Shown piece by piece: positions 5,858 to 20,474 of a stretch of DNA of 64,000 nt. The notes under the pieces are model-generated. The model was not told the DNA's origin and searched no databases. It worked only from the letters and a program-made list of their open reading frames with translations. This stretch comes from Minisyncoccota bacterium (GTDB lineage Bacteria; Patescibacteriota; Minisyncoccia; UBA6257; 2-01-FULL-56-20). Numbering within the stretch: position 1 is the stretch's first letter; the number at the start of each line of letters is the position of its first letter. The DNA is taken from assembly GCA_036510525.1 (NCBI GenBank), contig DATCDU010000020.1, forward strand, positions 246-64,245, given 5' to 3'. A program made the translations under genes and the position numbers.

Positions 5858-5977
5858 GATTCCTCCACATTCCGCCTACTTTCCTGATCCCCTGTCAACG
5901 TTGTTGACCGCGCCATTTTCACCTATAATCTTTTTACCCTCGTCCTGGGAATCTGTAAAAATAATAGAACATAAACC

Positions 5978-6973
5978 ATGTTGATCGGCAAAGCATCCCC
6001 GGAGGATATGAACCTCCACCCAATTCAATATCAGTGGGCATACGACCTCTATCAACAGGCGGTACGCAACACGTGGTTCCCTCACGAGATCGCGCTCAAG
6101 GAAGACCTCTATGATTGGGAGAAGATGACGGAGGACGAACGCCACGCGGTGAAGTTCCTGATGGCATTCTTCAATCCGGGCGAGCTCATCGTCAACCGCT
6201 CGATTGCGCTCGGCATCTATCCTTATTTGAAGTCGCCGGAGTGCCATCTCTACCTTGCGAAGCAGATGTGGGAAGAAGCAAATCACTGCGTTGCCTTTGA
6301 ATACGTTTTGGAAACATTCCCGCTTGATCGCACGAACGTGTTCAACCTGCACCTCGACACGCCGTCGATGAAAGCCAAGGAAGATTACATCAATAAGTAC
6401 ATGCGCCGCATGACGGAAGACACGCTTGACGTCGAGACGCCGGAGGGCAAGAAAGATTTCATCCGCAACCTCGTGGCGACGAACATCGTGATGGAGGGCA
6501 TCTGGTTCTACAGCGGCTTCATGGTGGTGCTCTCGTTCCGCCAACGCAACCAGCTCCGCAACTTCGGCTCAATGATCAACTGGGTGATCCGCGACGAATC
6601 GCTCCACCTCAAGTTCGGCATGAACCTCATTCAGAATATTTTAGAAGAGAATGCCGAATTGCTCACGAAAGAATTTGCGAACGAGATCAAACAGATCGTG
6701 ATCGACGGTGTGGACCTTGAGGTGGCCTACAACAAAGATCTTTTCCCGCGTGGCATCCTCGGCCTGAATGCCGACTATGTGAACCAGTACGTGCAGTACG
6801 TCGCCGACCGGCGCCTGGAAGAGCTCGGCATCGGCCCGCACTACGGCGCGAAGAATCCCGCTAAGTGGATGGCGGGCGCGACCGACGTCCTCGAGCTCGT
6901 CAATTTCTTCGAGGCGCAGAACACGTCGTACGAAGTGGACAGCCACGCCGCCGATAAAAAGAAGGAAGCATAA
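5978..6973 (+). CDS. nrdB: Ribonucleoside-diphosphate reductase beta subunit (class Ia)
   Basis: Ferritin-like di-iron R2 motifs (..WEEANHCVAFEY..; ..DESLHLKF..); 331 aa. Confidence 0.95.
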   Translation: MLIGKASPEDMNLHPIQYQWAYDLYQQAVRNTWFPHEIALKEDLYDWEKMTEDERHAVKFLMAFFNPGELIVNRSIALGIYPYLKSPECHLYLAKQMWEEANHCVAFEYVLETFPLDRTNVFNLHLDTPSMKAKEDYINKYMRRMTEDTLDVETPEGKKDFIRNLVATNIVMEGIWFYSGFMVVLSFRQRNQLRNFGSMINWVIRDESLHLKFGMNLIQNILEENAELLTKEFANEIKQIVIDGVDLEVAYNKDLFPRGILGLNADYVNQYVQYVADRRLEELGIGPHYGAKNPAKWMAGATDVLELVNFFEAQNTSYEVDSHAADKKKEA

Positions 6974-7036
6974 CAATAAAAACAGCCTCTCGCCTCCAGG
7001 CAGATGACCGTTCGGCGAGAGGCTGTTTTTATTGTT
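6972..7036. repeat. Family-A palindromic element copy 1 (23-bp perfect arms, conserved 19-nt core TCCAGGCAGATGACCGTTC); doubles as the nrdB terminator
   Basis: Arms aacaataaaaacagcctctcgcc (6972-6994) and ggcgagaggctgtttttattgtt (7014-7036); the left arm starts inside the TAA stop codon; the core is identical to the one at 56976-56994. Confidence 0.65.
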
Positions 7037-7045
7037 TGGTATAAT
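7037..7045 (+). promoter_or_regulatory. Extended -10 promoter (TGgTATAAT) for the 7057 gene, giving a near-leaderless transcript
   Basis: tggtataat ends 11 nt before the ATG at 7057; no good -35. Confidence 0.35.
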
Positions 7046-7056
7046 AGAAAGACGTT

Positions 7057-7725
7057 ATGAATCTGAAGAATATCCTTATCACGTTGTCCATCGTCGCGGT
7101 GGTGATTGTATGCGTGGCGTTCTACGTCGTGTTCTATAGCGGCGGAGGGACGTACGTCGTGAGCTCTCTCACCGGCCCGAATGCGGACATCTTTGGCGCG
7201 GGGACCGAAAATACCAGCACCTTGGGCGCAAGCTCGACCGCCAGCTCTACGGCGTTCGCGTCGTCATCCGCGCTTGACGACACCGGCGCGTCCTCTTCCG
7301 CAAGTTCCACCGCCTCATCGTCGCTTACGACCACACCGGGCAACACGACGGTCGTCTCGTGGACCCAGGGCAATGAGGCGCTTTTGATCACCGGCGCCCT
7401 GATCTCGGGCGATCAGCTCACACTCGGCGTCCAGGTGGCGATGGGCAGCGTCAGCGAATGCGTGCCGCTTAACCTCCGCCTGATCGCCGACGAACAGGGC
7501 GATCTTTCGCCACCGATCACATCGCAGTTCACCTTTCCGGACACCGGCACCTGCAACGGTACCGCGGGCGAGACCTACAGCGCCCAGCCGATCGTCTTCA
7601 CGCTCAGCGATCCCAGCGCCTTCCCCATCGTCCTCACGACTGGCGGCACGGCCAACATCCTCTTTGAGGTCGTGCAGGATCCCGACGGCAGGCTGAGCGC
7701 CCAACTGCCGCCGAGCTCGGATTAA
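7057..7725 (+). CDS. Membrane-anchored Ser/Thr-rich hypothetical protein
   Basis: N-terminal TM helix (ILITLSIVAVVIVCVAFYVVF), low-complexity S/T/A region; 222 aa. Confidence 0.5.
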   Translation: MNLKNILITLSIVAVVIVCVAFYVVFYSGGGTYVVSSLTGPNADIFGAGTENTSTLGASSTASSTAFASSSALDDTGASSSASSTASSSLTTTPGNTTVVSWTQGNEALLITGALISGDQLTLGVQVAMGSVSECVPLNLRLIADEQGDLSPPITSQFTFPDTGTCNGTAGETYSAQPIVFTLSDPSAFPIVLTTGGTANILFEVVQDPDGRLSAQLPPSSD

Positions 7726-7791
7726 AAATTGATTAAATGACCGCTATTGAAAATCCACCCCCGTCTGCTACAATAGTATTCGTATTGTAAT

Positions 7792-8072
7792 TCCGCGATA
7801 GCTCAATGGTAGAGCGGCGCCCTGTCAGCAAGGCAGCTCGCATCGGAAACGGTGCGATGATAAAAATCTTGGGATAACGGTGAATGCTAAGTCCGCAAGG
7901 ATATGCGAATACCGTGGGAACCCTCCGCACGGGAGGGGCACCGTAGAGACTAGATACCGAGATGCCTAACACCCGCAATGGGCGGGTCATGGCAATGATA
8001 TAGTCCACGCCTCTTGGAAACATTAGGAAACGTGTAAGGCGATGGTTCCAGGTTCGAGTCCTGGTCGCGGAG
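7792..8072 (+). tRNA. tRNA-Asn(GUU) interrupted by a group I intron in the anticodon loop (alternative reading Thr-UGU)
   Basis: 5' exon TCCGCGA-TA-GCTC-AATGGTA-GAGC-G-GCGCC-CTGT (7792-7825); 3' exon TAA-GGCGA-TGGTT-CCAGG-TTCGAGT-CCTGG-TCGCGGA-G (8035-8072). Spliced product has anticodon loop CUGUUAA, U1-A72 and G73 as in E. coli tRNA-Asn. Confidence 0.75.
7826..8034 (+). ncRNA. Group I self-splicing intron (~209 nt) in tRNA-Asn
   Basis: Contains group I conserved R element GTAGAGACTAGA (ccgtagagactagatacc) and S element GATATAGTCC; 5' exon ends in U; intron ends in G before the 3' exon. Confidence 0.7.
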
Positions 8073-8138
8073 CAGTCAATATCTTTTATCGGACAGACCG
8101 AGAGGCATCGATTTTTGCTATCTTTTTTGATGCTAAAA

Positions 8139-8162
8139 GTTCGAGTCCTACTCCTATGGCAT
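8139..8162 (+). repeat. Degenerate second copy of the tRNA-Asn 3' end (T-loop and acceptor-like)
   Basis: gttcgagtcct identical to 8052-8062; continues ...actcctatggca versus the native ...ggtcgcggagca. Confidence 0.45.
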
Positions 8163-8309
8163 CTAGGACACCGAACTCAGCGCTTTAACTTGAATTTAAG
8201 TCGCGGAATTTTAATTGACATTTATATTAAAATATGTTTTACTCACACTAGCTACTCACAACTGAAAACTAGGTTGGAGAGGTGGCAAATTTCTGAAAGG
8301 AGATAGCGC

Positions 8310-8858
8310 ATGAACTTCTTTGTTTGTATCGAAGGTGTCGATTGTGTCGGAAAAACCTCCGTTGCTGAATTGCTAGCCAGCCGGGTCAACGCTGTCTACT
8401 ATAAAAGTCCCGGCGGCATGTATGCTAAGGAACGAAAGATCGTAGATGGATCGATTGAACCTTTGCGACGGTATTTCTTTTACCGGGCGGCTACCCAGTA
8501 CGACTCGGGGATTATTGGCGGATTACTCAAACATTCGCCCGTTGTCTGCGATAGGTATATCTATTCAACCTTTGCCATGCACGCGGCAATGGACGAAAAG
8601 ATCCGATCTCTCTTTGAAATCACTGGCCTCGTCATGCCGGACTACGTTTTTCTTTTGACCGCCGATGAGGCGATCCGAAGAAAACGTCTAGCCGAACGCT
8701 TCGATGCCACGACGCTGGAAAGCAATTTTCTGCTTCAGAAAAAGGCAGATGAACTTTTCAAGCTTCAAGGACATCCAACCATCGATACGACAAATACAAA
8801 TGTCGATGAAGTGGTTGAAACAATCTTGTCTCGCTTGCGAGAGAAAGGATCGATATGA
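8310..8858 (+). CDS. Thymidylate-kinase-family P-loop dNMP kinase
   Basis: IEGVDCVGKTS P-loop and CDRYIYST (DRY/DRF motif); 182 aa; ATGA overlap with the next gene (translational coupling). Confidence 0.6.
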   Translation: MNFFVCIEGVDCVGKTSVAELLASRVNAVYYKSPGGMYAKERKIVDGSIEPLRRYFFYRAATQYDSGIIGGLLKHSPVVCDRYIYSTFAMHAAMDEKIRSLFEITGLVMPDYVFLLTADEAIRRKRLAERFDATTLESNFLLQKKADELFKLQGHPTIDTTNTNVDEVVETILSRLREKGSI

Positions 8859-9592
8859 CGCTACGCAGCCCACTGTGGTACGAGAGATTCTTCAAGATTG
8901 CGCTTCTCGAAAGAAAAGAGAAGGCGCAGGCCGTTGCCAGGATGCTGCAAGAAATTGCGCAACCCGGCAACTTGAGAACAATGTTCGATGAATTCTTGTA
9001 TGAAGTGACCACGTCGGTTCACCAAAACACGGATTCATACACCCACGACAATGGCTTCGACAAAATCGTCCTCTTTGAGGATGATAAGACCAAACTGAAG
9101 ATGCGGCTGCATATTTGGCACCCGCTTCTCATTCCTGGTGCCAAACGGCCGCGGCAGAATGTTCACAACCATCGCTGGGACTTCGGCTCTGTCATCTTAC
9201 TCGGACATGCCGACCACCTTACCTACCAGTTCGCCAAACAAAATAGTGAGGGTGAAGAATTCTTCCATTATCGCTATTACGCCCGAGGCAGCAAAGAGCA
9301 CTACGAACTCGAAGAACTCGGGAAAGCCAAGTTAGTGTGCCTTGGAAGCGAACGTTTCGAAGCAGGTCAACTTTACTACATCGACAACGAAGTTCTGCAC
9401 CGCGTGGACATCGATGACAATATCGCGGTGGCGACCCTCATCATCACGCATGAAAACGTTGGCTGGATCACGAACGACCTGCTTTCTGAAAAGAGCATGG
9501 GGTTTGAAAAGGTCCGACTCCAATCTCCCGCCATGGCCAGAGAGCAAATCGTCTCCAAGGTCACGGCATTGCGCGAGTTGCTCCACATCTAA
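8855..9592 (+). CDS. Cupin-fold protein with cysteine-dioxygenase/ADO-like metal-site pattern
   Basis: IPGAKRPRQNVHNHRWDFGSVILLGHADHLTYQF aligns by eye to the CDO PG..S.IHDH....F.K.L.G...E..F region; 245 aa; function inferred only. Confidence 0.4.
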   Translation: MTLRSPLWYERFFKIALLERKEKAQAVARMLQEIAQPGNLRTMFDEFLYEVTTSVHQNTDSYTHDNGFDKIVLFEDDKTKLKMRLHIWHPLLIPGAKRPRQNVHNHRWDFGSVILLGHADHLTYQFAKQNSEGEEFFHYRYYARGSKEHYELEELGKAKLVCLGSERFEAGQLYYIDNEVLHRVDIDDNIAVATLIITHENVGWITNDLLSEKSMGFEKVRLQSPAMAREQIVSKVTALRELLHI

Positions 9593-9604
9593 CAAGGAGG
9601 ATGT

Positions 9605-10114
9605 ATGGCAAGAATCTACGTAAGCGAGGAACGGCTGAAAAAACTTCAGCGGGAACTCGAAGACGCCCATGCTGGCCTCAGTGGATTGCGTAAGGAAAAG
9701 AATCTTGCGTACACCGCTACTGGCGACACGTGGCATGACAACCCCTACTTCAACAAATTAACTCAAGACGAGGAAACGCTGGCTCGGAAGATCGCCGAAA
9801 TCCAGCAAACTATCTCCGAAGCCGAAATCTACAATCCATCCGTACGGAACATCGAACAGGTTCGGCTAGGCTCGATCGTACGCTTCGCGCGACGTTATAA
9901 AAATAACAGCGAAGAGACGGACGAGACCTGGGAGATTGTCGGATTTGGCGAAACCGATGTACCCCAGAATCGCGTCGCATACAATGCTCCACTTGGAGCT
10001 GCGCTGATCGGCATGGGGCCAGGCGATACCAAGCAAGCGACGACGCCTAAAGGTGCTGTTGAGTATGAAGTCATCGATCTGTATCCCGACTGGGATGCGG
10101 TGCCGAAAAAATAA
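9605..10114 (+). CDS. greA: GreA/GreB-family transcript cleavage factor
   Basis: N-terminal coiled coil (EERLKKLQRELEDA), C-terminal FKBP-like domain (...SPLGAALIGMGPGDTKQATTPKGAVEYEVIDL); 169 aa. Confidence 0.6.
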   Translation: MARIYVSEERLKKLQRELEDAHAGLSGLRKEKNLAYTATGDTWHDNPYFNKLTQDEETLARKIAEIQQTISEAEIYNPSVRNIEQVRLGSIVRFARRYKNNSEETDETWEIVGFGETDVPQNRVAYNAPLGAALIGMGPGDTKQATTPKGAVEYEVIDLYPDWDAVPKK

Positions 10115-10200
10115 TAGAATTTGGTTTTGAAGACTCAATCTATGGTCGTTCCTCTTTAAAGGGAGCGGCCATTTTTTTGTGATATCATAAAGATTAACCG

Positions 10201-10875
10201 ATGATAAAAGGCATCATATTCGACTTTGACGGCGTCCTGATTGATTCTGAACACATCAATATTACTGCTGGTATTCAAGCGTTCAAGGAATTTGGTTACG
10301 ACTTATCCAACGCCGACAAAAAATTAATACCGGGCCAGCATTCTGAGAACGTCATATCGCAGATTCTGAAATTGCGAGGATTAGATCTGCCGAAAGAAGC
10401 CTTACGAGAACAATACAGTAAAGCGTACGGGGATATGTGGGAAGATGCAGTTACCGTTATGCCGCAGGCGAAGGAGACATTGCAACGACTAAAGAGCGGT
10501 GGAATCACGCTCGGCCTCGCGACCAATAATTATAGATCGCGGGTCGAAACCTTCCTTAAACAAACCGAGCTCGGAAACATTTTCTCCGTGATCGTAAGCG
10601 GCGAAGATGTAGCGAAGAGGAAACCCGATCCGGAAGTTTATGTAAGAGCAAAGATAAAATTAGGTCTTCCCGACGAGTCAATTCTCGCTATCGAAGACGG
10701 AGCAGTCGGCCTTGCATCGGCAAAGGGTGCGGGACTCCGATGCGCAATCATTCTCAATCAATACAGCGCGGGCCAAGATTTCTCAAATGCGGACTTCGTG
10801 TTTAAATCCCTGGCGGAACTCATAAACCACCTCAGCGAGAATAAACTGATGGATAAAATTTTTTTACCAGCTTAG
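10201..10875 (+). CDS. HAD-superfamily hydrolase (beta-phosphoglucomutase-like subfamily)
   Basis: DxD motif (MIKGIIFDFDGVLIDSE), later K and DD motifs (AIEDGAVG). Confidence 0.8.
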   Translation: MIKGIIFDFDGVLIDSEHINITAGIQAFKEFGYDLSNADKKLIPGQHSENVISQILKLRGLDLPKEALREQYSKAYGDMWEDAVTVMPQAKETLQRLKSGGITLGLATNNYRSRVETFLKQTELGNIFSVIVSGEDVAKRKPDPEVYVRAKIKLGLPDESILAIEDGAVGLASAKGAGLRCAIILNQYSAGQDFSNADFVFKSLAELINHLSENKLMDKIFLPA

Positions 10876-11353
10876 GGAGATCGCTTTTTGATTTGTCGCC
10901 AGTCGCCAATTTTTTAAGAAGTTCTTCTGGTGTGAGCCAATAGTATTCAATGAAATCGCTTTTATTGAAATTTGGAATCGAATCGGATTTTATCTCGTAC
11001 ACATTCATGAAAGCGGACACGCCGTCTTTGTTAGGACTTAGATGCCCAAGGAGCGGATGTGGTGTGGCTTCAGCATTTAAGCCAAGCTCTTCCTCTAATT
11101 CTCTTCCGAATGCTTCTTCATAACTTTCACCGGACGAGACATGCCCCCCCATGCTCATATCAAGGCCAAGCGGGAAAAGACGTTTATTAGCAGCTCGACG
11201 GGGAATCCATATTTTCCCCTCGGAGTTCACAATAAAAGCATTCACGACTCGAAAATTACTTAATCCCTCGGCATAGACTTCTGAGCGCGGTTTTGAGCCA
11301 ACGACCTGATCATTTTCATCCACCAAATCCAAAATTTCTTCGGCGCTAGACAT
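10832..11353 (-). CDS. NUDIX hydrolase
   Basis: Nudix box GGHVSSGESYEEAFGRELEEELGL. Confidence 0.8.
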   Translation of the reverse strand: MSSAEEILDLVDENDQVVGSKPRSEVYAEGLSNFRVVNAFIVNSEGKIWIPRRAANKRLFPLGLDMSMGGHVSSGESYEEAFGRELEEELGLNAEATPHPLLGHLSPNKDGVSAFMNVYEIKSDSIPNFNKSDFIEYYWLTPEELLKKLATGDKSKSDLPKLVKKFYPSVYSR

Positions 11354-11572
11354 TTTTATTTTAAAAATTTTATTCCTATATTTTATCCGGAGGAGTTTCC
11401 TTTCTCACAATTTTATAAAAATATATTCCCTTCGTTCGCCTACTCAATGTACCATTATATATGTATATTTCAAGTGTGCAGCTCAAAAACCTGACCCCAC
11501 TGAGACTCGAACCGGATTTTCAACAAAATCGAAAACAAAAAGTGAGGTTTTTTAATGCTTTTTTGAAACTAG

Positions 11573-11629
11573 TTCGAGTCGAAGTGCCGGAGCAGTCTAG
11601 TTTTAGTATCGGACAGACCGAGGGGCGTC
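11573..11629 (+). repeat. Partial duplicate of the tRNA-Asn 3' end plus downstream 45 nt (attR-like remnant)
   Basis: ttcgagtc-gaag-tgccgga-g-ca-gtctagttttagtatcggacagaccgaggggcgtc aligns with 8053-8109; an inverted, more degenerate copy of the T-loop/acceptor segment lies at 11491-11515. Confidence 0.5.
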
Positions 11630-11630
11630 A

Positions 11631-11664
11631 GTGAAATCCCCGTTCACAGGAACGGGGATTTCAC
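11631..11664. terminator. 15-bp perfect hairpin downstream of dcm (bidirectional terminator candidate)
   Basis: gtgaaatccccgttc-acag-gaacggggatttcac; no clean U-run. Confidence 0.35.
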
Positions 11665-11697
11665 GTTCTGCATGCCCTATATTTAACACCAAGGGGA

Positions 11698-12810
11698 TTA
11701 GGCGAAATATCTCTTAAATTGCTTTGCCCACGCCTCGGCAAGTAAAGGAGGAACAGCATTGCCCACCTGGGCATAATAATTTCTCTTATTGGACGAAGAA
11801 AGGCGGAACCAATCCGGGAATGATTGTATCCGCATGCCCTCCCGTATGGTTATCAAGCGATCAGCGGAATAATGGATGTTGCAACCGACATTCGGTCTAT
11901 TGAAATGGGTGTTCAACGTATAAGGCGTCCGATTGGGATGCAATCTTCCATAGGTAGTCGTACGGCCACCAGTTTTTTTGAAGTTCATGATCCTCTTCGT
12001 CGCTATAGAATCTGGAACGTCCATGTAGTTGCCACCGGGTTTCACTGCTTTAATGATTTCCTTATCCTTGGCACTGGCATACGGCGGGTAATGATGATAA
12101 ACCCCCCGAGATCCAATTCTCATCTTCTCTTGAAATTCACTTGATGGCTTTGAACGATACTGGAGTGGTTCATTGGAGGATGGGCGCGGCAAATCAGATA
12201 GAGCTTCCTTCGCGGTCACCCACTTTTTTAATCCATCGCCGCCATCTTCACTATGGGTAGGTTTAGGCAGTGGTATCTTCAAGCCCGAAGAAGTGCCGAT
12301 AATAAATACCCGCCTGCGTCTTTGCGGAACGCCGTAATCGGCGGCATTCAAAACGTGCGTCTCTATCCTGTAACCAGCAGCACCAAATGCCTCGCGGAGG
12401 TCGTCAATGACAGACTCACCTCTTTCATTTTCCGCCGAACGGAGACCGAGAACGTTTTCGAATAGGAATGCAGCTGGCCTAACTGCCTTCAAGACATCTA
12501 AGTAGTTCCACACAAGGCGGCTTCTAATGTCATCGGATTTGCGTTTACCAACAAGGGAAAAGGATTGGCATGGAGGACCGCCAATAACTAAATCGGCTTT
12601 CGGTATGCTTTTGAAATTCACGCCCCCTATGTCGGCACACAACGTATCAGCTTTAAAATTATTTCTGAAGGTTGTGCAAAAATCTTCAACGACATCATTG
12701 GCCCAGAGAACCTTAAATCCTTGTTCGTGAAAGCCGAGGTCTAAGCCGCCGCATCCAGAGAATAAGCTGACAATCGTTGGTTTAGCCATTTTGGTTTGAT
12801 CTGTCATCAA
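11698..12810 (-). CDS. dcm: DNA cytosine-5 methyltransferase
   Basis: Motif I FSGCGGLDLGF, motif IV GGPPCQSFS, motif VI FLFENV; 370 aa. Confidence 0.9.
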   Translation of the reverse strand: MMTDQTKMAKPTIVSLFSGCGGLDLGFHEQGFKVLWANDVVEDFCTTFRNNFKADTLCADIGGVNFKSIPKADLVIGGPPCQSFSLVGKRKSDDIRSRLVWNYLDVLKAVRPAAFLFENVLGLRSAENERGESVIDDLREAFGAAGYRIETHVLNAADYGVPQRRRRVFIIGTSSGLKIPLPKPTHSEDGGDGLKKWVTAKEALSDLPRPSSNEPLQYRSKPSSEFQEKMRIGSRGVYHHYPPYASAKDKEIIKAVKPGGNYMDVPDSIATKRIMNFKKTGGRTTTYGRLHPNRTPYTLNTHFNRPNVGCNIHYSADRLITIREGMRIQSFPDWFRLSSSNKRNYYAQVGNAVPPLLAEAWAKQFKRYFA

Positions 12811-14348
12811 CTAGATCTTTCAAGAACAACTCAGCGAAGTCGGCCAATTTCGCATTGTTTTCAAATCCACCGATTCCATGATTGATTAATACCGAAGCCA
12901 TCGCTAGATCTAAATCTCGCCTTGGAGTTTCTATTCCTTCGTCACCCTTGACGCTCTCGCCTAAAGCATCGAACTGTTCGAGCGCGGCGCACAACGAATC
13001 AACCTCTTCGGATTTAAGTTCGTCGGGATCAATGGATTTCATCCCTCTCACCATGAAAGCTTCTATTTTTAGCATGCCCTCTTGGTTACCACCCTCGAGT
13101 TCGAACTGTAATTGACCGAAAGCGGACATAAGGTATGACGCTATCACCTTCAAAGATTTGTCGTTACCAAACTTGCGACGCAACAGTCCGCTCGTATAAC
13201 AAAAATTCGTCGATAGTAAAATTCCCTGCTCAGGCGATGCTACATAAATCGCATGCTTTTCCCTAGCTGCCCGGGGGATCAATAATTCCGCCTTTACCTT
13301 GCTGTGGTATGCCGCGTCGACGACCTTCTTCCATTTAGCACGCCCGATGCGTGCCTGCGCTTCCAGAAAAAGCTTGCCAAGGCCGGTGTTTTGGAACACT
13401 TTAAGAGATGATGGCATCGACATCATTTTCTATTGCACGCTTCAGATGTTCGCCATCCTGGTTGCTTAAGAATTTTTCCATCAAAATCACACCTGCACGT
13501 CCTCGCTCCTTCAAATAGTGCCCTATCCAATCCATAAAATAGAAATAAAGGTTCGGCTGCTTCGCCTCCTCCACAATCGTTTTCCCACCATTCGCGGACT
13601 TGAGCGCCTTAATCATGGCTTGTTTGCGGCTGTCAGGTATTGGGTTCTCCGGATCGTCGTTTCGTAGAAAAGGTGGATTCATCAGCACGGCGTTAAATTG
13701 TGCCGGACGCGGATTTGAGAATACGTCCCCGTTAATGAAGTCGATTTCCGTAGAGCTGTCTACTGCATTTAGATTCTTGGCAAGTAACCGGAATGCTGCA
13801 AGCTGGTTTCCGGTCGGCGCTTGGCCCGGCCAGAGTCCCATCTCGACCCGCGTTCTGAGTCCCCGCTTCACATTCACGCTCTTATTATCGTTCTCCAGTT
13901 TTGCCTGCGAGCATAAGATCATCAGCAGAAATTTATCGCTGGGCGAATTCTTGAATCCCTGCCCGAACGTTTTTATCTCCACCAATGATTTTTGATCCAT
14001 CAGGTCCACAAGTGCCCCGAGGTCGCCCGCGTTCCTGCTCAGCCGGTCCGGCGCCCACGTGAGAATACCGTTGAACCGCGCCGCCTTCAGATCATTCACT
14101 ATTTCATTGAAGACCGGACGCTGGTTGGAATCTTTTGCCGAATGGGACTCCCGCCGGATATCGGCGACTTCCAGCCCTTCCCGCTCGGCGATCTGGAGCA
14201 TCTCCTTAACCTGCGAATCGATGGACAGCACCTGCTTCTCCTCGCTTTCGCTCGATTTCCGCGCGTAGAGCACGTATTTGACCTTTATTGGCACCTGCAC
14301 CGCTATTTGGGTTCCGCTCCCCGGCGACCCCATGGTTTGGTTTGTCAT
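12782..14348 (-). pseudogene. Chimeric, frameshifted remnant: large-serine-recombinase catalytic domain fused in frame to a gamma-class N6-adenine MTase (HsdM-like) that lacks motif I
   Basis: ORF 13401-14348 has resolvase N-terminus (YARKSSESEEKQVLSIDSQ...DRLSRN...GLWPGQAPTG), then the MTase motif IV region (IDFINGDVFSNPRPAQFNAVLMNPPF...GRAGVILMEKFL...VDAIIS). ORF 12782-13426 continues the MTase in another frame (LPSSLKVFQNTGLG...). No FxGxG AdoMet motif anywhere. Confidence 0.55.
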
Positions 14349-14435
14349 ACATCAATGAATGACGCACCTCTCCTGGCAAGTCCAGACCTCACTACAAGGC
14401 GACGAAGTTACCCATTTGCCTAGTTAGATACGATC

Positions 14436-15002
14436 CTAAGCCGTTGGAAGAGCCTTTGGCGGATCAAACTTGCACCGCTCGCCATTCACTAGGCCGAAAC
14501 CGGTGAGATGGATAAAGAACAGGTCCCAATCGTCGCCGCCATCGGTCGTACTCACGCATTCGTCGTTGATGTACTTTGTTGCGCTATACTTTTTATCTTT
14601 GTCGTCGTAGCCGATTATGAGATGACAATTGTCTCCGTAGACGTTGCGATATCTCATGCAGCTCAAATAGCCATCTTTTTTGTAAGTATGGAATTCCGGT
14701 TCATAGAGAGCGCTACCGGTTACCTGTCGCCCATTGTCAATCCGTGTGCCCATATAGAGGACATTGAAGGGAAAGCGGTTCAGCTCTGGATTCCAGGAAA
14801 TCTCCAAACGCTGCGGCACGAAAGCGAATCTCGTTTTTGCGTCTTTCTTGAGTATTGCTTTTTCTTCTTTGTTAAATTGTCTCATAAAATTGCGAAACCC
14901 TGCCGCGAGGCAGGGATGATAAATGTTTGCTTCGACCTTTATCTTTCCCTTGCGGGCTGGATGTAGCACCGTATCGTTTCCGATTGGTTGCCGGTGGGTC
15001 AT
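14436..15002 (-). CDS. Hypothetical protein (188 aa), no recognisable domain
   Basis: ORF only; low-GC island context. Confidence 0.4.
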   Translation of the reverse strand: MTHRQPIGNDTVLHPARKGKIKVEANIYHPCLAAGFRNFMRQFNKEEKAILKKDAKTRFAFVPQRLEISWNPELNRFPFNVLYMGTRIDNGRQVTGSALYEPEFHTYKKDGYLSCMRYRNVYGDNCHLIIGYDDKDKKYSATKYINDECVSTTDGGDDWDLFFIHLTGFGLVNGERCKFDPPKALPTA

Positions 15003-15194
15003 TGAGCCAGTGCTCTCGCCACACTCTTGATAACTATTCAGTTGTGCTTACCATTCCATTCTAGCAAATGCTTCAAACAATACAAGCGACTTTCTCCGGT
15101 GTAAGCTTCATTTTTCCCGACCCAATGTATCTTGTATTGTTTCGCATCGCGCGGCCGATCGACGAGAAGACGAGGCGTGAAGTCGTGTATCAGT

Positions 15195-15831
15195 CTAGGC
15201 ACCATACCGCTGCATAATTTTATCAGCGATTTCTCTTCTTTCGCCCAATTTCATTTTTGAGTCATGGTTCGGCAATTTGTTGACCTTCGCAACATATACC
15301 TCGCTTGCTTTTAAAAATTGACTCCACGATAATCGTATAACCTTCCCTTTCTTTACAAAAAAAACATATTTCATTTTTAGGATTTGCCCATAGCTGCGCC
15401 AGAAAGCCATATTACGCCCTATGTAATCGAACAATAACTGATAAATATTCCGGCTCGCATAAGAGGAACCAATCGCCCAACACACATAAGCGCACCAACT
15501 GCGGTATTTTGTTTTGATAGATTTTTGCTTCCTATGCGTAAGCGGCGCAGTCACCAATCCAGAGAACGAACCGATGAACGATCCCCTCTTTTGAGTGCCT
15601 AGAGAAGAGCGAGTAAAATTTCTTGCGCCACTCCTCATTCCTCCTTACCTGATAAAAATAATTGAACTTTCTTTGATACTCTGCGGAAATATCTGCAGCG
15701 TCTGCCTGGAATAAATTCTCACGGAGAAAAATATAAACACCGAGAACTTTCTCCCATTTTTTTGAGTCTCGCTCGGCAAAAATGTCATCGATCTCCTCCC
15801 GGGTGAGTTCTATAGTTATTTCATTAGTCAT
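15195..15831 (-). CDS. Hypothetical protein in two overlapping frames (15532-15831 and 15195-15638); possible frameshifted single gene
   Basis: Two same-strand ORFs overlapping by ~107 nt; no recognisable domain. Confidence 0.3.
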
Positions 15832-15924
15832 ACCTTATAGACTATTCAATGCTTGCTATCACTTTATTTCTATCACGTTAAGCAACTTTCGGCAAAATTG
15901 GCTCTATTATTGTAAAATTGACGC

Positions 15925-16224
15925 ATGAAGAAAAAGCCCAAGAAAATTAAGCTGGAGGATGTCATCCAAAAATATACACTCGATGATGTTGTCGAGTCTG
16001 AGGAATACAAGGAAGAGACGGAACAAGCGGAAAATGAGATTGAACAGCATCTTGAACTTCTTCAAGAATATATTGGGAGAGAACTTGTCGAAATCGAAAG
16101 ACGAGCCGTTCTTGATATCGTGGGCGAATATAGTACGAAGGATGACGATGGATATATCGTCTTATATTTCTCCTTCATCCAGGCGTGGAAGATTTATGAG
16201 CACCAGCGCAAGAAACTTTCATAA
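15925..16224 (+). CDS. Small acidic hypothetical protein
   Basis: 99-aa ORF rich in E/D; convergent with terL. Confidence 0.3.
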   Translation: MKKKPKKIKLEDVIQKYTLDDVVESEEYKEETEQAENEIEQHLELLQEYIGRELVEIERRAVLDIVGEYSTKDDDGYIVLYFSFIQAWKIYEHQRKKLS

Positions 16225-16236
16225 CGCCACACCGTC

Positions 16237-17415
16237 TTATTCCCCATAGCGTTTTTTGTCCTCAGTTATCCTCTTTTCGAGGTCTTCTTTCTTCGGATAG
16301 AAATACATATCATCCAAAAACTTGAAATACTTCGGATCATCAAGGCTCTCGAAAATCGGCATCGAGTGTCTCGGCGCATCGATCGCAAATTCTTTCATCT
16401 GGGACACGAGCGCTTTTTGATAGGGACTTACTCTTTTGTATCCATCTTTTAGACGATTGTTTTCTATCCTTTCCAATAAATCTCGCATTGAATCATCGGT
16501 CAAGAATTTTATGTTCGGTCCGTCCTCATTATTCTGCCCGTAGGATTTGAGGAGGTATTCCCGTATCCATATGCCAAGCGATACGCGCGTACGGAGTGCG
16601 AGCACTGCTTTGTGGTTTGGATATCGACTTTCCCATAAGTTCTTCCCTCGGTCGTCAATCAACGGATAGGCCCGAAATATACCTTGAATCTTTCCAGTGA
16701 GAATCTCGAGACGGAGCCGCAAAATAAATGAGTCCCGATTCATTGTGGGATCACCCCAGTAATGCGACAGGAGATTCCCAAGAACAATGACCTTCGTATC
16801 CGCATTTCCAAGCGGGAGTATCTCACTTTCAAACCATTGCCCAAGCGCCGCAGCAAGCGTTCGGTCTTCCACTGACACGCTGTCTTCGAGATCGTCACAA
16901 ATAATGAGATCCGGCCGGTACTGGTTGTGCTTTAACCCTCGCACCCGTTGGTCGCGGGAGATGGAGAGAATTTTCGCGCCACAGTAATCGAGCTCAAGCG
17001 ACAATCGATTCCATGCGGCCTCGTTTTCTGTGAACGGACCGAAATCTTCCCTAAGCGCCTCATTGCCTTCGAGTTCTGCTTTAATATTCAAGAAGTGGTT
17101 CTTTGCCTGCTCTTGGGTATTGCTTACGATGATCACGAATTTCTTCCCCGGCTTGCCGAGGATAGACCAGAGAACATTTGCCATATTCATGATTGTCGAT
17201 TTGCCGGATTCGCGGAATGCCATCACGACCACAAAGTTGTATTTCTCTTCCTGGATCAAATGAAACATCTCCATATGGAAGGCTGCCAGCGGAGCGCTCA
17301 AATGATGACGCAGATACAATAAGGTGAACCAAAACGGGCTTTCGTATGCAAGCCGCTGACGTACCCGTTTATTTCCCCGTATCTTTTCGAGTTCGTTTGC
17401 GGTGATCTTTTTCAT
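16237..17415 (-). CDS. Phage terminase large subunit
   Basis: Walker A-like AFRESGKST, Walker B LIICDDLED, C-terminal nuclease-like region; 392 aa. Confidence 0.8.
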   Translation of the reverse strand: MKKITANELEKIRGNKRVRQRLAYESPFWFTLLYLRHHLSAPLAAFHMEMFHLIQEEKYNFVVVMAFRESGKSTIMNMANVLWSILGKPGKKFVIIVSNTQEQAKNHFLNIKAELEGNEALREDFGPFTENEAAWNRLSLELDYCGAKILSISRDQRVRGLKHNQYRPDLIICDDLEDSVSVEDRTLAAALGQWFESEILPLGNADTKVIVLGNLLSHYWGDPTMNRDSFILRLRLEILTGKIQGIFRAYPLIDDRGKNLWESRYPNHKAVLALRTRVSLGIWIREYLLKSYGQNNEDGPNIKFLTDDSMRDLLERIENNRLKDGYKRVSPYQKALVSQMKEFAIDAPRHSMPIFESLDDPKYFKFLDDMYFYPKKEDLEKRITEDKKRYGE

Positions 17416-17827
17416 TGGTTTTTCCTGCGGCGAGGTTCAGAGCGTCAAGCACCAGTTTTTCTTCTTCGGGAGAAAGCTCGTCCGCCGATGCGATAGGAAC
17501 GTACGGCTGACTCTTCGAACCGTACCGCGCGTGATGGTGCTTCAGCCACAACGTAATCGCCGGCATCTTTTTTTCTTTGATGAGCGCGATGAGTTGCGTT
17601 TCGCTCATGTCATTCACGAATTCGATGCCGCGATCCATGGCATCCCGACTTTGCCGCATGAAGTCCTTGTCCTCCTGCCGCCAGCGATAGTACGTAGCAG
17701 AACTCACTCCCGCGCGTTTGCACGCCACGGTGATGACAGGCATCTCTTTCAAGAATTCGACGAGCCCTTGTTTATTGTCGTCCCGCCGCTCTATAACCGA
17801 GGGATTCTCCGCCGGATTAACAGGCAT
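17369..17827 (-). CDS. Phage terminase small subunit-like HTH protein
   Basis: HTH (ACKRAGVSSATYYRWRQ) directly upstream of, and overlapping, terL. Confidence 0.55.
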   Translation of the reverse strand: MPVNPAENPSVIERRDDNKQGLVEFLKEMPVITVACKRAGVSSATYYRWRQEDKDFMRQSRDAMDRGIEFVNDMSETQLIALIKEKKMPAITLWLKHHHARYGSKSQPYVPIASADELSPEEEKLVLDALNLAAGKTNEKDHRKRTRKDTGK

Positions 17828-17923
17828 TGATTCTTACGGCGGTAAGACCGGTCAGTTTCTCCCAGCGCCTCTTTATCACTTCGGCATACACCGGCGACTT
17901 TTCCATGAGGTAGCACCGGCGTT

Positions 17924-18004
17924 GCATCCCCTCCTCCGACCGACCCCTCTGGGACGCCCATGAAACCTCGCTACACGGGATTCAAGTCCGAGGTGGGGAG
18001 CAAA
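17924..18004 (+). repeat. ~80-bp direct repeat, copy A
   Basis: gcatcccctcctccgaccgacccctctgggacgcccatgaaacctcgctacacgggattcaagtccgaggtggggagcaaa; ~90% identical to 19067-19151; 3' part resembles a tRNA T-loop/acceptor end (ttcaagtcc...ggagca). Confidence 0.6.
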
Positions 18005-18033
18005 TCTTATTTTCTGTGTGTTAAGCTGTTTGT

Positions 18034-18105
18034 GATGCGGTAGCCAAGTGGTTAAGGCATTTGTCTGCAAAGCAAATCTCGTAGGTTCGACTCCTACCCG
18101 CATCT
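18034..18105 (+). tRNA. tRNA-Cys(GCA)
   Basis: GATGCGG-TA-GCCA-AGTGGTTA-AGGC-A-TTTGT-CTGCAAA-GCAAA-TCTCG-TAGGT-TCGACTC-CTACC-CGCATC-T; clean cloverleaf. Confidence 0.85.
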
Positions 18106-18106
18106 C

Positions 18107-19051
18107 ATGACTGCAAAAGAATACATCGAGCAGAGGTTGGAGGGCATGAAAGATAAAAGTATTGAGCCAAATATGAAACTGGCCGACTTTATTTTTGCGA
18201 GCATAATGTCAAAGAAGTTCAGAAAATATAGCGTGAACCCCGCAACCAACGACACGGTTCGTAAAGCCATCGAATTGAACATCGGGAATAACGAGCCCAT
18301 AAAAATCGCCATCCCGTTCGGTACCTATAAATTATGGAGGTTGGAGGAAAGCCCCGAACCGGACTGGGCTGAATTGTTCACGATGATCTATTACGCTTAC
18401 TGGCTAAAGCCCATAACGACCGTATACGAACCAGGGGTATGGTTTGATTTTTGCGGAGACGATGCAATCTTGGAATTGATGAATAATATTCCTGAAGTGG
18501 ATACTGAAAGATATAAAAAAGTTTTTAGAGAGCTGATAAATTTTATGGGGCGTTACCTGCCGGAAAATTTTAAATACACCCTCAGTCCCGTAGGTGAAAG
18601 ATACAGTTCACGAGAAGAATTTCTTGCCGACCTTAATGAAAAGATCAAAACACTAGAGCAGAATGGCGGTATCACACTGACTGAACGGGATATTGAAATG
18701 ATGAGGTTCAATATAATACCAAAAGCCGACACGGAGACAGATTTTAAAAAGAATCGGGTCTTACACGATGCATATATGGCGGTAAGCAAACGAAGAGCTC
18801 ATCATAAACGGCCAGATAAAATTCTTATATCAGCAACCCCTTTTGGCGATAGAACGAGCATCCCCCTGGGGACCACAAAAGCTTCTGTTGTTAAATTCCA
18901 AACAGGTGCGGGTGTTTTAAAAAGAAACAACGATAGTTTTGTGGAATATATCTATTCACCCTCACAACTAGAAGGCGGCAAGTTTCAATGGGAAGATATT
19001 CAAATCGAGGGGTTAACGGGAAAGAACTTCAGCCGAATAAGAATCGCATAG
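18107..19051 (+). CDS. Hypothetical protein (314 aa), no recognisable domain; starts 2 nt after tRNA-Cys
   Basis: ORF only; AT-rich; sits between the two 80-bp direct repeats. Confidence 0.5.
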   Translation: MTAKEYIEQRLEGMKDKSIEPNMKLADFIFASIMSKKFRKYSVNPATNDTVRKAIELNIGNNEPIKIAIPFGTYKLWRLEESPEPDWAELFTMIYYAYWLKPITTVYEPGVWFDFCGDDAILELMNNIPEVDTERYKKVFRELINFMGRYLPENFKYTLSPVGERYSSREEFLADLNEKIKTLEQNGGITLTERDIEMMRFNIIPKADTETDFKKNRVLHDAYMAVSKRRAHHKRPDKILISATPFGDRTSIPLGTTKASVVKFQTGAGVLKRNNDSFVEYIYSPSQLEGGKFQWEDIQIEGLTGKNFSRIRIA

Positions 19052-19066
19052 ATTCTTCGACTGAGG

Positions 19067-19151
19067 TGCATCGTTCCCCTCCACCGACCGACCCTCTGGG
19101 ACGCCCACGAAACCTCGCTCCATGGGATTCAAGTCCGAGGTGGGGAGCAAA
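19067..19151 (+). repeat. ~80-bp direct repeat, copy B (ends in the SD of the EEP gene)
   Basis: Aligns with 17924-18004; ends ...ggtggggagcaaag immediately before the ATG at 19153. Confidence 0.6.
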
Positions 19152-19152
19152 G

Positions 19153-19686
19153 ATGAAAATAGTATTTCTGAACACTTGGAACGGAAAAGTTCAGGATGGA
19201 ATATCCGACTTCATCAAAGAACAATCCACCGATACAGATGTTTTTTGTTTGCAAGAAGTATACGAGGAGATGAGACTACTCTGTAAAAAGCTTCTTCCGG
19301 ATTACAAAGAGGTCGTCGCGTATAAACGCATAGGCATAGAGAATGATTTTCCGCAGGCAACCTATTTAAAGAAAGGGTTACATCTACTATCTTCTGAAAT
19401 AGTGCTGGACAACCAGCCGGGCAAGGCCAATCCCAGCGACAAGAGTAGCTGGCAAAGTGGCGACCACCACCTACCGAAAAATGAGCGTAAGCTCTGGGGC
19501 GGGGCAATCGACGCCCATGGCCTGATTCTCTCTTTCACTGGCGCCCCCGAACTCGGCGATGAAGCCGCAATGCTCCTTGCTGCTGTGCGGATGGGGCTCC
19601 TTGATGAGGGTGAGGCGCTTGAGATCGCAACCATCAGCATCAATACGGTGTACACATCGGTCATTCGTTTATACCCCTACGAATGA
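19153..19686 (+). CDS. Endonuclease/exonuclease/phosphatase (EEP) family protein, apparently truncated
   Basis: MKIVFLNTWNG...DVFCLQEV N-terminal EEP motifs; only ~178 aa versus ~250-300 expected; the ORF-track start at 18988 runs through the repeat and is probably not the real start. Confidence 0.5.
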   Translation: MKIVFLNTWNGKVQDGISDFIKEQSTDTDVFCLQEVYEEMRLLCKKLLPDYKEVVAYKRIGIENDFPQATYLKKGLHLLSSEIVLDNQPGKANPSDKSSWQSGDHHLPKNERKLWGGAIDAHGLILSFTGAPELGDEAAMLLAAVRMGLLDEGEALEIATISINTVYTSVIRLYPYE

Positions 19687-19700
19687 TCACCGGCGCCAAT

Positions 19701-19739
19701 GGCAACAATCTCACTACGAGGTTGTTGCCTATTTTTTTA
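19701..19739 (+). terminator. Intrinsic terminator after the EEP gene
   Basis: ggcaacaa-(13 nt)-ttgttgcc followed by tatttttttat. Confidence 0.6.
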
Positions 19740-19832
19740 TCCTCTCTTTAAATAAGTTCGAACACTTTCCACGATTCGGAGTAGTCACTGATATAAGTTT
19801 ACGGACGGAATTTTAATTGATATACTGAACCC

Positions 19833-20051
19833 ATGCAAAAGATAGCCACCCGCGTATTCATCTATTCGTCGATTGTTTTTGGGATCATAGGGATCCTGGT
19901 GGTCTTCACGTTGCCCGGTACCGGCACCGATGCAGACAGCCCGTATTTCGGTATCCATATTCTCCTCATGAAGCTTTTGTTCGCGACCGTCTGTATCATA
20001 CTGCCCTCCTTCGCCTTGAGCATTGCGGGCAAGTATCTGAACGGCAAATAA
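19833..20051 (+). CDS. Small membrane protein (2 TM)
   Basis: 72-aa hydrophobic ORF. Confidence 0.35.
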   Translation: MQKIATRVFIYSSIVFGIIGILVVFTLPGTGTDADSPYFGIHILLMKLLFATVCIILPSFALSIAGKYLNGK

Positions 20052-20063
20052 TTCGCGGGGCAG

Positions 20064-20474
20064 ATGAAGAAACGCATTTCCAAATACACGCCGCGCGGGT
20101 ATAAGCTCTCGGTTCGGCGGGGCTTGAACGGCAAGGGGCTCTTCACTGAAGAAGATATCCCGAAGGGAGTCTGTGTTATTGAGTACGTTGGGCGTGTGGT
20201 CAGCCAGAAAGAGGCGGAGAATGACGAGGGCAGATATCTTTTCGACGTGAACGCGAAGAAAACGATCGACGGGAACATCCCCTCCAATCGGGCGCGATAC
20301 ATCAATCACTCCTGCAGGCCGAACTGCGAGGCCACCGGCCCGCACGACAAAGTGTTCATCTTTTCCCGCACGCGCATCAAGGCGGGAACCGAGCTCACCT
20401 ACGATTACGGAAAGGAATATTTCAATAAGTTCATCAAGCCGAAAGGTTGCCGATGCGAGAAGCACGGTGCCTGA
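20064..20474 (+). CDS. Bacterial SET-domain protein (putative lysine methyltransferase)
   Basis: RYINHSCRPNCE (NHSC motif), ELTYDYG, C-terminal Cys cluster (CRCEKHG); 136 aa. Confidence 0.8.
   Translation: MKKRISKYTPRGYKLSVRRGLNGKGLFTEEDIPKGVCVIEYVGRVVSQKEAENDEGRYLFDVNAKKTIDGNIPSNRARYINHSCRPNCEATGPHDKVFIFSRTRIKAGTELTYDYGKEYFNKFIKPKGCRCEKHGA

Follow-up and report, generated by a model that had tools for sequence, protein, structure and literature searches.

The locus described here lies in a 64 kb window, by which we mean the whole stretch of DNA that was analysed, and the element and operon remnants it contains belong to a Paceibacterota (CPR) bacterium. Read along the minus strand, it comprises the remnant of a prophage-like element, the remnant of a large serine recombinase (LSR), two fragments of a Type IIG restriction enzyme and a C5 cytosine methyltransferase (MTase):

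17817..17927, minus: end of a ParB-N6/N4 methyltransferase gene (last 36 codons)
17369..17827, minus: terminase small-subunit-like gene, part of the prophage-like element remnant
16237..17415, minus: terminase large-subunit ATPase-like gene, part of the same remnant
15582..15583: third deletion junction; 590 nt of the related locus L105 (8830..9419) missing, 2-nt microhomology
14936..15036, minus: SAM-I riboswitch aptamer (Rfam RF00162, 58 bits against a gathering score of 44.4, full model covered)
14436..14885, minus: gene for a 149-aa protein, element cargo
13401..14348, minus: chimeric ORF, 315 aa (NCBI HEY5220932.1, 'recombinase family protein')
13809..14348, minus: LSR remnant (PF00239), catalytic domain with the YARKSS serine motif and helix E, ending in ...GLWPGQAPTG
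13808..13809: junction J1, LSR ...ACCGGA joined to enzyme AACCAGCTT..., one shared base (A)
13404..13808, minus: Type IIG enzyme fragment 1, gamma-class N6-adenine MTase motifs III-VIII including NPPF
13401..13404: junction J2, internal deletion; 5589..6123 of the related locus L007 (residues 72-248 of its relative P0122) replaced by ~5 nt
12782..13426, minus: ORF B, 214 aa; 13402 down to 12785 encodes the C-terminal ~205 residues (specificity-domain end)
11698..12810, minus: C5 cytosine MTase (M2), intact (PF00145, E 2e-70)

In the 315-aa ORF, LSR residues 1-180 run in frame into residues ~392-526 of the Type IIG enzyme. The Pfam Resolvase profile (PF00239) matched residues 26-171 with E 1.6e-19 and the Eco57I (PF07669) and N6_Mtase (PF02384) profiles matched residues 186-305; the YARKSS motif is found at residue 28 and NPPF at residue 224. 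These matches confirm that the in-frame recombinase-MTase chimera reported in the initial annotation is real DNA, encoded on the minus strand. Both MTase profiles were matched only from an internal position onward (Eco57I from 57 of 171, N6_Mtase from 90 of 311), so the AdoMet-binding part is absent. A DPxxGxG motif was also sought in the ORF and is absent, in agreement with the earlier statement that the AdoMet motif is missing. Among the best 120 of 8000 scored recombinase relatives the fusion is the only protein with both domains and is unique to one population; its cluster has two members, which are one sequence with two different start calls.

The recombinase remnant and the prophage-like element

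Intact LSR relatives carry PF00239, the recombinase domain PF07508 and the zinc ribbon/coiled coil PF13408. Neither of the latter two was found in the ORF with Pfam or in the 64 kb window with tblastn. The remnant shares the resolvase-type catalytic domain and helix E with LSRs and phage serine integrases (TP901-1 integrase, SPbeta SprA/YokA, SCCmec CcrB), but the copy in the window ends at residue 180, directly after the GLWPGQAPTG sequence through which the initial annotation had traced it. Without the recombinase domain or the zinc ribbon/coiled coil, both of which bind att sites, it is unable to act as an integrase. The best solved structures matched were 3BVP (TP901-1, E 2e-9) and 9DXH (YokA), and the NCBIfam matches to CcrB and XisF were weak. 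We found no paper on this recombinase family in Patescibacteria in a literature search.

The remnant is 93% identical in amino acids to residues 1-180 of P0003, a 449-aa relative. Full-length relatives read ...GLWPGQAPTG/YLNEKR and the window reads ...APTG/NQLAAF; beyond 13809 the recombinase would continue as TACCTGAACGA.... DNA homology to L105, L003 and L001 ends at 13809. The closest intact element (L105/L106, with a 445-aa LSR) is 96.5% identical over window positions 15583..13805, and its homology likewise ends at J1. We also considered a break point shared with the truncated relatives (P0024, P0030, P0033, P0055, P0062 and others) and rejected it, as those continue into YLNEKR; they are contig-end or unrelated truncations.

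The identity of the stub to L105 drops from 100% to 81% towards the junction, with 42 synonymous and only ~3 nonsynonymous changes (one of them at the junction codon). Close to the junction the LSR DNA is 86-88% identical to the L105/L001 clade, compared to 70% for the L065 type. By this pattern of identities the stub is a mosaic, and the junction may therefore have arisen in another element and arrived by homologous recombination, in which case its history would not be one simple deletion.

Upstream, the terminase genes matched PHROG 38 (E 1.6e-34) and PHROG 4044 and their region is 93.5% identical in DNA to L105. The element remnant spans ~4 kb and holds two breaks besides J1 and J2. At 15582/15583 the missing 590 nt span the 213-aa and 196-aa genes of L105, and position 17927/8 is the left truncation point of the remnant, adjoining a 78-nt repeat. 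The repeats 8052/11572 and 17927/19075 matched no family in permissive Rfam scans.

The Type IIG enzyme fragments and the C5 methyltransferase

The MTase fragments derive from a BpuSI-like Type IIG R-M-S fusion enzyme of ~910 aa. The closest intact operon (L007) encodes M1 (520 aa, an N6-adenine MTase), RM (910 aa) and M2 (372 aa, a C5 MTase), and its RM protein consists of BpuSI_N, N6_Mtase and BpuSI_TRD. Its N-terminus matched the structure of BpuSI (PDB 3S1S, E 3e-15). RM.BpuSI likewise combines the BpuSI_N nuclease, a gamma N6-adenine MTase and BpuSI_TRD in one protein, although the overall sequence identity to the L007 enzyme is low and the nuclease domain alone matches by sequence. The BpuSI system comprises an M1 amino-methyltransferase, an M2 C5-methyltransferase and the R-M-S fusion, in a layout as in L007 (PMC3185434). 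By comparison, the window retains two enzyme fragments (135 and ~205 residues) and the C5 MTase. The enzyme had initially been labelled HsdM-like. This label is wrong: there was no HsdM_N match and no hsdS or hsdR alongside, and the homologues carry BpuSI_N and BpuSI_TRD, which rules out a Type I HsdM.

The window aligns to L007 only at 5181..5588 and 6124..7808. Fragment 1 starts directly after motif II in the alignment (DPFL/NQLAAF) and is 79% identical in amino acids to L007 across the 71 residues covered by P0122. ORF B is 73% identical to P0122 residues 249-454. What is missing at the front of the enzyme amounts to ~391 residues, namely the nuclease domain and AdoMet motifs I-II. Neither motif I (DPCxGDG) nor motif II is present in fragment 1, and tblastn found no BpuSI_N PD-(D/E)xK nuclease domain in the 64 kb window (it is present in L007, P0127 and P0128). 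The catalytic motif IV (NPPF/Y) and motifs V-VIII are present, and PADLOC reported REase_MTase_IIG matches. The target-recognition domain is incomplete, with P0122 residues 72-248 deleted and the last ~205 residues in another frame. The initial annotation had placed the rest of the MTase in the overlapping ORF in another frame and called the gene frameshifted. The C-terminal part does lie there, but it is separated from fragment 1 by an internal deletion with a net loss of 530 nt, which creates an immediate TAA, and not by a simple frameshift.

The enzyme fragments contain no internal stops. Compared with L007 their nonsynonymous divergence is 0.135-0.149 and the synonymous divergence is >0.8, where synonymous sites are saturated (pS > 0.75) and the comparison rests on the nonsynonymous proportions alone. 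As nonsynonymous divergence is far below synonymous divergence, most of it arose under purifying selection, which suggests a recent inactivation of the enzyme.

The C5 MTase is 86% identical to M2 of L007 and only 31% identical to the Dcm downstream of the LSR in L105. The gene begins before ORF B has ended, and the same overlap is seen in L007. It is effectively an orphan, the solitary survivor of the BpuSI-like operon. Decay of R-M systems can leave solitary MTases, and losing the nuclease first is the safe order for an addictive R-M module. The window likewise lost the nuclease and cognate parts and kept an intact MTase; it differs from the usual course of such decay in that the remnant is also fused to a neighbouring mobile-element gene.

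Breakpoints and missing parts

At J1 the recombinase sequence extends to base 13809 and the restriction-enzyme sequence takes over at 13808. That the frame is kept across the joint is a matter of chance (1 in 3). At J2 535 nt were lost relative to L007 (net 530 nt, 177 residues) with a microhomology of 1-2 nt; the deletion changes the frame and the TAA stop follows directly (13403..13401). All four breakpoints (13808/9, 13402-4, 15582/3 and 17927/8) show a microhomology of merely 1-2 nt.

We searched the 64 kb window by tblastn with full-length recombinases and enzymes (P0003, P0005, P0122-P0128) and recovered the known fragments only, with no LSR C-terminal domains and no MTase N-terminus. 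This verifies the earlier observation that the missing halves are not nearby. A weak match at 58184..58495 was considered as the missing recombinase half and rejected, as it lies in a T2SSE ATPase. The inverted repeats matching the junction that had been proposed were looked for across the 64 kb window and none exist: one scan of the whole window, one local scan and a search for 26-mers allowing <=3 mismatches gave neither inverted nor direct repeats at J1. The repeat pairs touching the region (e.g. 13826-13841 / 14142-14157) are short ones of the kind expected by chance. In a consensus scan of 11300-15700 the counts of promoters and terminators were at shuffle level.

It is very unlikely that the joint was produced by the assembler joining two genomes or strains at J1. 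The genome was assembled from a metagenome, misjoins are favoured by the abundance and high conservation of the LSR family in such samples, and the identity to relatives shifts along the stub. However, the parents share only 1 nt at the joint, or 6 of 8 bases when mismatches are tolerated, far under any assembler k-mer, and the neighbouring breakpoints are of the same character. The identical 315-aa protein is present on three contigs, all with the identical joint; their sources are ENA, JGI, Logan and NCBI, and one of them, in k141 MEGAHIT style, is identical over 20.9 kb. The ENA contig L002 corresponds to window positions 3401..24333 at 100% identity, and the assemblies holding the locus agree with each other.

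The same breakpoints bear on the idea that the recombinase itself made the joint, with a crossover site inside its own gene and integration into the enzyme gene splitting both. The att sites of LSRs share only a 2-bp core, so the near-absence of homology at the joint is as expected from a site-specific event, and the break falls at a domain hinge. Against this, more than 100 relatives are intact across the break position in integrated contexts and there is no reciprocal joint within 50 kb. The comparison of L105/L003 with L007 gives no identical dinucleotide at J1 (GA/TA before, TA/AA after), and three other breakpoints of like kind lie nearby. We regard such an event as extremely unlikely.

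Origin of the fused reading frame and remaining element cargo

The fused ORF is very probably a non-functional scar, left by deletions as a prophage-like element and an R-M operon decayed. The breakpoints and the intact parental states in relatives support the deletion or recombination scar joining two defence-island genes that was suggested initially. In the proposed course of events an ancestral Patescibacteria prophage-like element ending in the LSR gene would have adjoined a BpuSI-like M1/R-M-S/M2 operon. An illegitimate deletion with one shared base would then have removed LSR codons 181 to the end, the intervening DNA, M1 and ~391 enzyme codons, taking with it the nuclease domain as well as AdoMet motifs X, I and II and leaving a joint that was in frame by coincidence. 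A further deletion inside the enzyme (net 530 nt) would have removed 177 codons and made the stop, and two more would have trimmed the element itself. On this reading the recombinase stub and both enzyme pieces are dead, and the C5 MTase survives intact but solitary. The order of these events, the original adjacency and co-orientation of the LSR and the operon, and the loss of function are inferred.

LSRs of the type found in the window often adjoin R-M genes (L001, L105, L006, L065 and L108), which makes an adjacency of LSR and operon before the deletion plausible. The LSR of L007 is more distant (37% identical) and also lies beside R-M genes. Among the 96 loci of the enzyme family a neighbouring LSR was encountered only in L007 and L065, in both cases divergent from the operon. 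L105 and L001 have another Dcm gene behind the LSR. The exact ancestor with LSR, M1, RM and M2 in one orientation was not seen in any relative, which counts against the scar.

The divergent orientation is also relevant to the phase-variable arrangement raised in the initial annotation, where the joint would be one state, the partner halves would lie elsewhere and inversion would restore both genes. A single inversion ending in the LSR and RM genes, in an arrangement like that of L065 or L007 (the two relatives of the operon that are of Patescibacteria type), would give exactly an LSR N-terminus joined to an RM C-terminus, and the joint is in frame. Yet no partner fragments were found within 13.8 kb on one side and 50 kb on the other, J1 has no inverted repeats, and the recombinase has no DNA-binding domains. 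The context upstream of the stub is that of the native element and not an inverted M1/RM N-terminus, next to the junction the LSR DNA groups with the L105/L001 clade and not with the L065 type, and the same element has two further deletion breakpoints. As the enzyme carries a second deletion of 530 nt, no inversion can restore a working enzyme. Phase-variable Type I hsdS shufflons have an intact recombinase, inverted repeats in alternative hsdS cassettes and silent partner cassettes. The window resembles them in having a recombinase gene next to R-M genes, but the intact recombinase, the inverted repeats and the partner cassettes are all absent from the locus. The phase-variable arrangement is thus unsupported and we consider it highly improbable.

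The LSR stub has not accumulated damage, which again counts against a dead scar and raises the question of a useful product. A stub without DNA-binding domains could form dead heteromers with incoming related recombinases and poison them, which would be a form of superinfection exclusion; alternatively, translation of the remnant could tie the C5 MTase that survives downstream to the transcription unit of the SAM riboswitch and the recombinase. The intact catalytic motif, the few nonsynonymous changes in the stub, the conserved overlap of ORF B with the start of the Dcm gene and the deletion of the operon's own M1-side promoter region all fit such a role. However, the near-synonymous-only divergence follows from the mosaic make-up of the stub, with intact genes as donors, the fusion is found in one population only, and its MTase part cannot bind AdoMet and ends at a stop made by a deletion. 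We therefore consider retention for a function very unlikely.

The deletion scar is ordinary and apparently recent. With four short-microhomology deletions within ~4.5 kb the locus cleanly illustrates the erosion of integrated elements and defence operons in small CPR genomes. For annotation this means that HEY5220932.1 and the next ORF (an unnamed hypothetical protein) are both pseudogene pieces. The serine-recombinase element family, very strongly conserved across Patescibacteria and repeatedly carrying R-M cargo, may matter more than the fusion.

The same may hold for the riboswitch, the most interesting side observation at the locus, which is predicted to control a family of uncharacterised 149-aa proteins. 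We found no paper on SAM riboswitches in CPR in a literature search. The SAM-I aptamer precedes both the 149-aa gene and the recombinase remnant; behind it comes a terminator hairpin (CCCTGCC-TCGC-GGCAGGG) that runs into a T-rich tract. The real start of the 149-aa gene is the ATG at 14885 and not 15002. The same arrangement of riboswitch and terminator is present in L103 and L105, so that a conserved SAM riboswitch precedes this uncharacterised gene.

The fused reading frame and its neighbours

The fusion lies in the first of two overlapping reading frames, which are followed by an intact gene:

13401..14348, minus strand: ORF A, the fused recombinase-methyltransferase frame, 315 aa, PF00239 at residues 26-171 (E 1.6e-19)
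12782..13426, minus strand: ORF B, 214 aa, in another frame and overlapping ORF A, weak BpuSI_TRD match only
11698..12810, minus strand: intact C5 cytosine methyltransferase (Dcm), after ORF B

The initial annotation had described an in-frame recombinase-methyltransferase chimera that lacks its AdoMet motif, and the profile searches agreed on both points. In ORF A the PF00239 match is followed from about residue 186 by matches to Eco57I and N6_Mtase. The catalytic YARKSS and motif IV (NPPF) were found, whereas the motif search returned no motif I (DPxxGxG) in ORF A. The coverage only starts at profile position 57 of 171 (Eco57I) and 90 of 311 (N6_Mtase) and thus the AdoMet-binding half is missing. 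An assembly artefact could be a possible reason for such a joint. However, window 3401..24333 matches L002, a contig from ENA, at 100% identity, and the identical fusion protein is encoded on three contigs. NCBI lists it as HEY5220932.1 ('recombinase family protein'), from a contig of 66,809 nt in a Candidatus Paceibacterota MAG. The locus is thus no peculiarity of one assembly. The protein falls in one 90%-identity cluster, whose two members differ only in their called start.

Intact relatives of the recombinase and the enzyme

For the recombinase we searched 5.8 billion proteins, scored 8000 relatives and examined the best 120. Among these 120, residues ∼1-180 are 70-99% identical, nearly all proteins have 430-470 aa with PF00239, PF07508 and PF13408, and the hosts are Patescibacteria, e.g. 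Staskawiczbacteria, Paceibacterota, Moranbacteria and Taylorbacteria. After ...GLWPGQAPTG all of them continue with YLNEKR, whereas the window continues with NQLAAF. Shorter relatives were rejected as examples of the same break, being contig-end or unrelated truncations broken at other positions.

The closest intact element (L105/L106, JGI) has the gene order ParB-methyltransferase, terminase small-like, terminase large-like, genes of 99, 213, 196 and 55 aa, a 188-aa ORF, the large serine recombinase (LSR, 445 aa) and a Dcm (378 aa). Window 17928..15582 corresponds to L105 6483..8829 with 93.5% identity and 15583..13805 to 9420..11198 with 96.5%; the homology stops at J1, the recombinase/enzyme junction at 13808/13809. 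The LSR family, which is also present on IMG/VR contigs, is very highly conserved across Patescibacteria (L001, L005, L006, L065, L105, L107-L115; window 13809..17928). Its companions in the closest elements are the terminase small- and large-like genes and the ParB-methyltransferase, and its flank usually holds restriction-modification (R-M) genes: Dcm in L001, L105 and L006, a Type I system in L108 and Type IIG in L065. The more distant LSR of contig L007 (37% identical) likewise adjoins a Type IIG operon.

For the reconstructed methyltransferase part we obtained nine homologous proteins. The alignment describes a family of ∼900 residues with a BpuSI_N nuclease at the N-terminus, motif I (IDPCSGDGALL), motif II (GIEIDPFL) and later regions. 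ORF A keeps the region NQLAAFRL ... VDAIIS, placed after motif II, and ∼180-210 family residues between the regions of ORF A and ORF B are absent from the window. A scan of metagenome contigs gave L007 as the closest full-length gene, with the layout LSR (549 aa, opposite strand), N6-adenine methyltransferase M1 (520 aa), R-M-S enzyme (910 aa), C5 methyltransferase M2 (372 aa) and an adjoining Shedu gene (SduA_C, 7857..9020, minus strand). The 910-aa enzyme carries BpuSI_N, N6_Mtase/Eco57I and BpuSI_TRD, matches the RM.BpuSI structure 3S1S at the nuclease domain (E 3e-15) and is also matched by PADLOC Type IIG models. In the published BpuSI system the R-M fusion adjoins two methyltransferase genes, M1 for an amino-methyltransferase and M2 for a C5 methyltransferase (PMC3185434), and the L007 operon shows the same three-gene layout. 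The window Dcm is 86% identical to the L007 M2 and only 31% to the Dcm after the LSR in L105. Judged by the family architecture, the 3S1S and Type IIG matches and this Dcm identity, the methyltransferase piece belongs to a BpuSI-like Type IIG enzyme, and the previous label 'HsdM-like' has to be replaced.

Breakpoints and origin of the fusion

Allowing for three coincident bases, the recombinase at J1 ends with base 13809 (GGA codon, G180), the first foreign base is 13808 and the microhomology is one base (A).

Recombinase parent: ...GCGCCGACYGGA / TACCTGAACGA
Enzyme parent: ...GATCCGTTTCTA / AACCAGCTCGC
Window: ...GCGCCGACCGGA / AACCAGCTTGC

As one joint in three is in frame by prior expectation, no special explanation is needed. 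Window 13809..13402 aligns to L007 5181..5588 and 13396..11712 to 6124..7808. At J2, a deletion within the enzyme, L007 5589..6123 (535 nt; residues 72-248 of the homologue P0122) is replaced by ∼5 nt at 13402-13404, where the frame changes and immediately reads ...ATC TCT TAA. The methyltransferase had been called frameshifted: the frame does change into the overlapping ORF, but the L007 alignment identifies the cause as a 177-codon deletion, and ORF B covers just the last ∼205 residues of the enzyme.

The element has decayed further. At 15582/15583, 590 nt are missing compared to L105 (2-nt microhomology), so that the 213-aa and 196-aa genes are each partly lost, and at 17927/17928 it is truncated on the left inside the ParB-methyltransferase gene (36 codons left, ∼2-nt microhomology). 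The four breakpoints, each with 1-2 nt of microhomology within ∼4.5 kb, point to repeated illegitimate deletion rather than programmed rearrangement. The junctions and the intact relatives L105 and L007 uphold the original suggestion of a deletion or recombination scar joining two genes, and we regard a deletion scar, a well-known kind of fusion, as very probably the best explanation. A dead recombinase stub would have become fused, in frame by coincidence, to a dead fragment of the Type IIG enzyme, followed by the enzyme's C-terminal remnant and the surviving C5 methyltransferase. The whole lies inside a prophage-like element that is decaying in a Paceibacterota genome.

The alternative that the fusion is half of an invertible, phase-variable arrangement found no backing. 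As initially noted, the missing halves are absent nearby: tblastn with full-length queries detected no other LSR or enzyme fragment in the 64 kb, which reach 13.8 kb to one side of the fusion and 50 kb to the other. One weak match was rejected as a recombinase fragment since it falls in a T2SSE ATPase. A check for repeats in the window found none, direct or inverted, involving J1, the 26-mer across J1 has no second match at ≤3 mismatches, and with J2 no inversion could restore a functional enzyme. A site-specific origin of J1 is unlikely too, since the sequences at the break allow no identical dinucleotide and the gene is intact in integrated contexts in >100 relatives. Even jointly, an inversion switch, an assembly artefact, a split on integration and a retained function have little chance of being correct.

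The recombinase stub is a mosaic. The window is 99-100% identical to L105 from 15583 to ∼14700, after which the identity declines in steps, reaching 81-82% over the final 75-79 nt ahead of J1. The 300 nt nearest to J1 show similar identities to L105, L003 and L001 (86-88%) and only 70% to L065. These values mark the stub as a recombinant between two element lineages, with a 3' part from an unsampled member of the L105/L003/L001 clade. The stub differs from L105 (13809..14348 versus 10670..11198) by 42 synonymous and ∼3 nonsynonymous changes, one at the junction codon, a synonymous-only pattern that reflects selection on the intact donor genes, with no demonstrable selection on the stub. Because of this mosaic, J1 may have formed in another copy and reached this one through homologous exchange in the conserved recombinase gene. 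More than one event is thus involved, and the verdict is unchanged. The exact ancestor (LSR, M1, R-M enzyme and M2 in one orientation) occurs in none of the relatives, and the LSR is divergent from the operon in L065 (LSR 63% identical) and L007. As the family recurrently lies beside R-M genes, adjacency before the deletion is plausible. The enzyme fragments contain no internal stops and differ from L007 by 0.135-0.149 at nonsynonymous and by >0.8 at synonymous sites (nonsynonymous value of the intact Dcm: 0.082), which suggests that most divergence accumulated under selection and that the inactivation is comparatively recent.

Riboswitch and repeats around the element

The most notable side observation is a riboswitch-gene pair:

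14936..15036, minus strand: SAM-I riboswitch, 58 bits (gathering score 44.4)

Next comes a terminator hairpin, immediately before a 149-aa gene (14436..14885) that itself precedes the recombinase. The pair is shared with L105 and the divergent L103, whose counterpart protein (58% identical) adjoins a PLD-SNF2 helicase gene. At 50% clustering and E ≤ 0.001 the protein family comprises 257 representatives, some of which have TPR repeats or a DSP phosphatase domain as fusion partner. The family matches none of the Pfam, PHROG, PADLOC and NCBIfam models and has no convincing structural neighbour. L103 also carries a LOOT RNA (RF03000, 80 bits); this RNA and the helicase gene, which lies beside the riboswitch-controlled 143-aa gene, are at 689..809 and 4560..10475.

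The G+C content is 44-49% in 8000..20000 compared to 51-60% in most of the remaining window, consistent with acquired and decaying DNA that forms an island around the element. A 78-nt direct repeat (17927..18004 and 19075..19151, ∼94% identity, no Rfam match), whose first copy abuts the truncated element end, brackets a tRNA-Cys (18034..18106) and a 314-aa ORF without family match (18107..19051), and may represent a duplication of the att type. A conserved intergenic motif, GTTCGAGTC-N5-SSCGGAGCAGTC ... TATCGGACAGACCGAGRGGC, has a tRNA T-arm-like start and gave no Rfam or tRNA call. Its two copies bracket different gene sets in the window (8052..8109, 11572..11629) and in L001 (13982..14125, 16556..16735), and stem-like positions vary between copies. 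Finally, an exact 29-nt repeat occurs 50 kb apart (6990..7018 and 56970..56998) and several perfect or near-perfect inverted repeats of 29-34 nt lie near tRNA genes (56941..57027, 57340..57455, 60742..60868); they may all belong to one family of hairpins or terminators.
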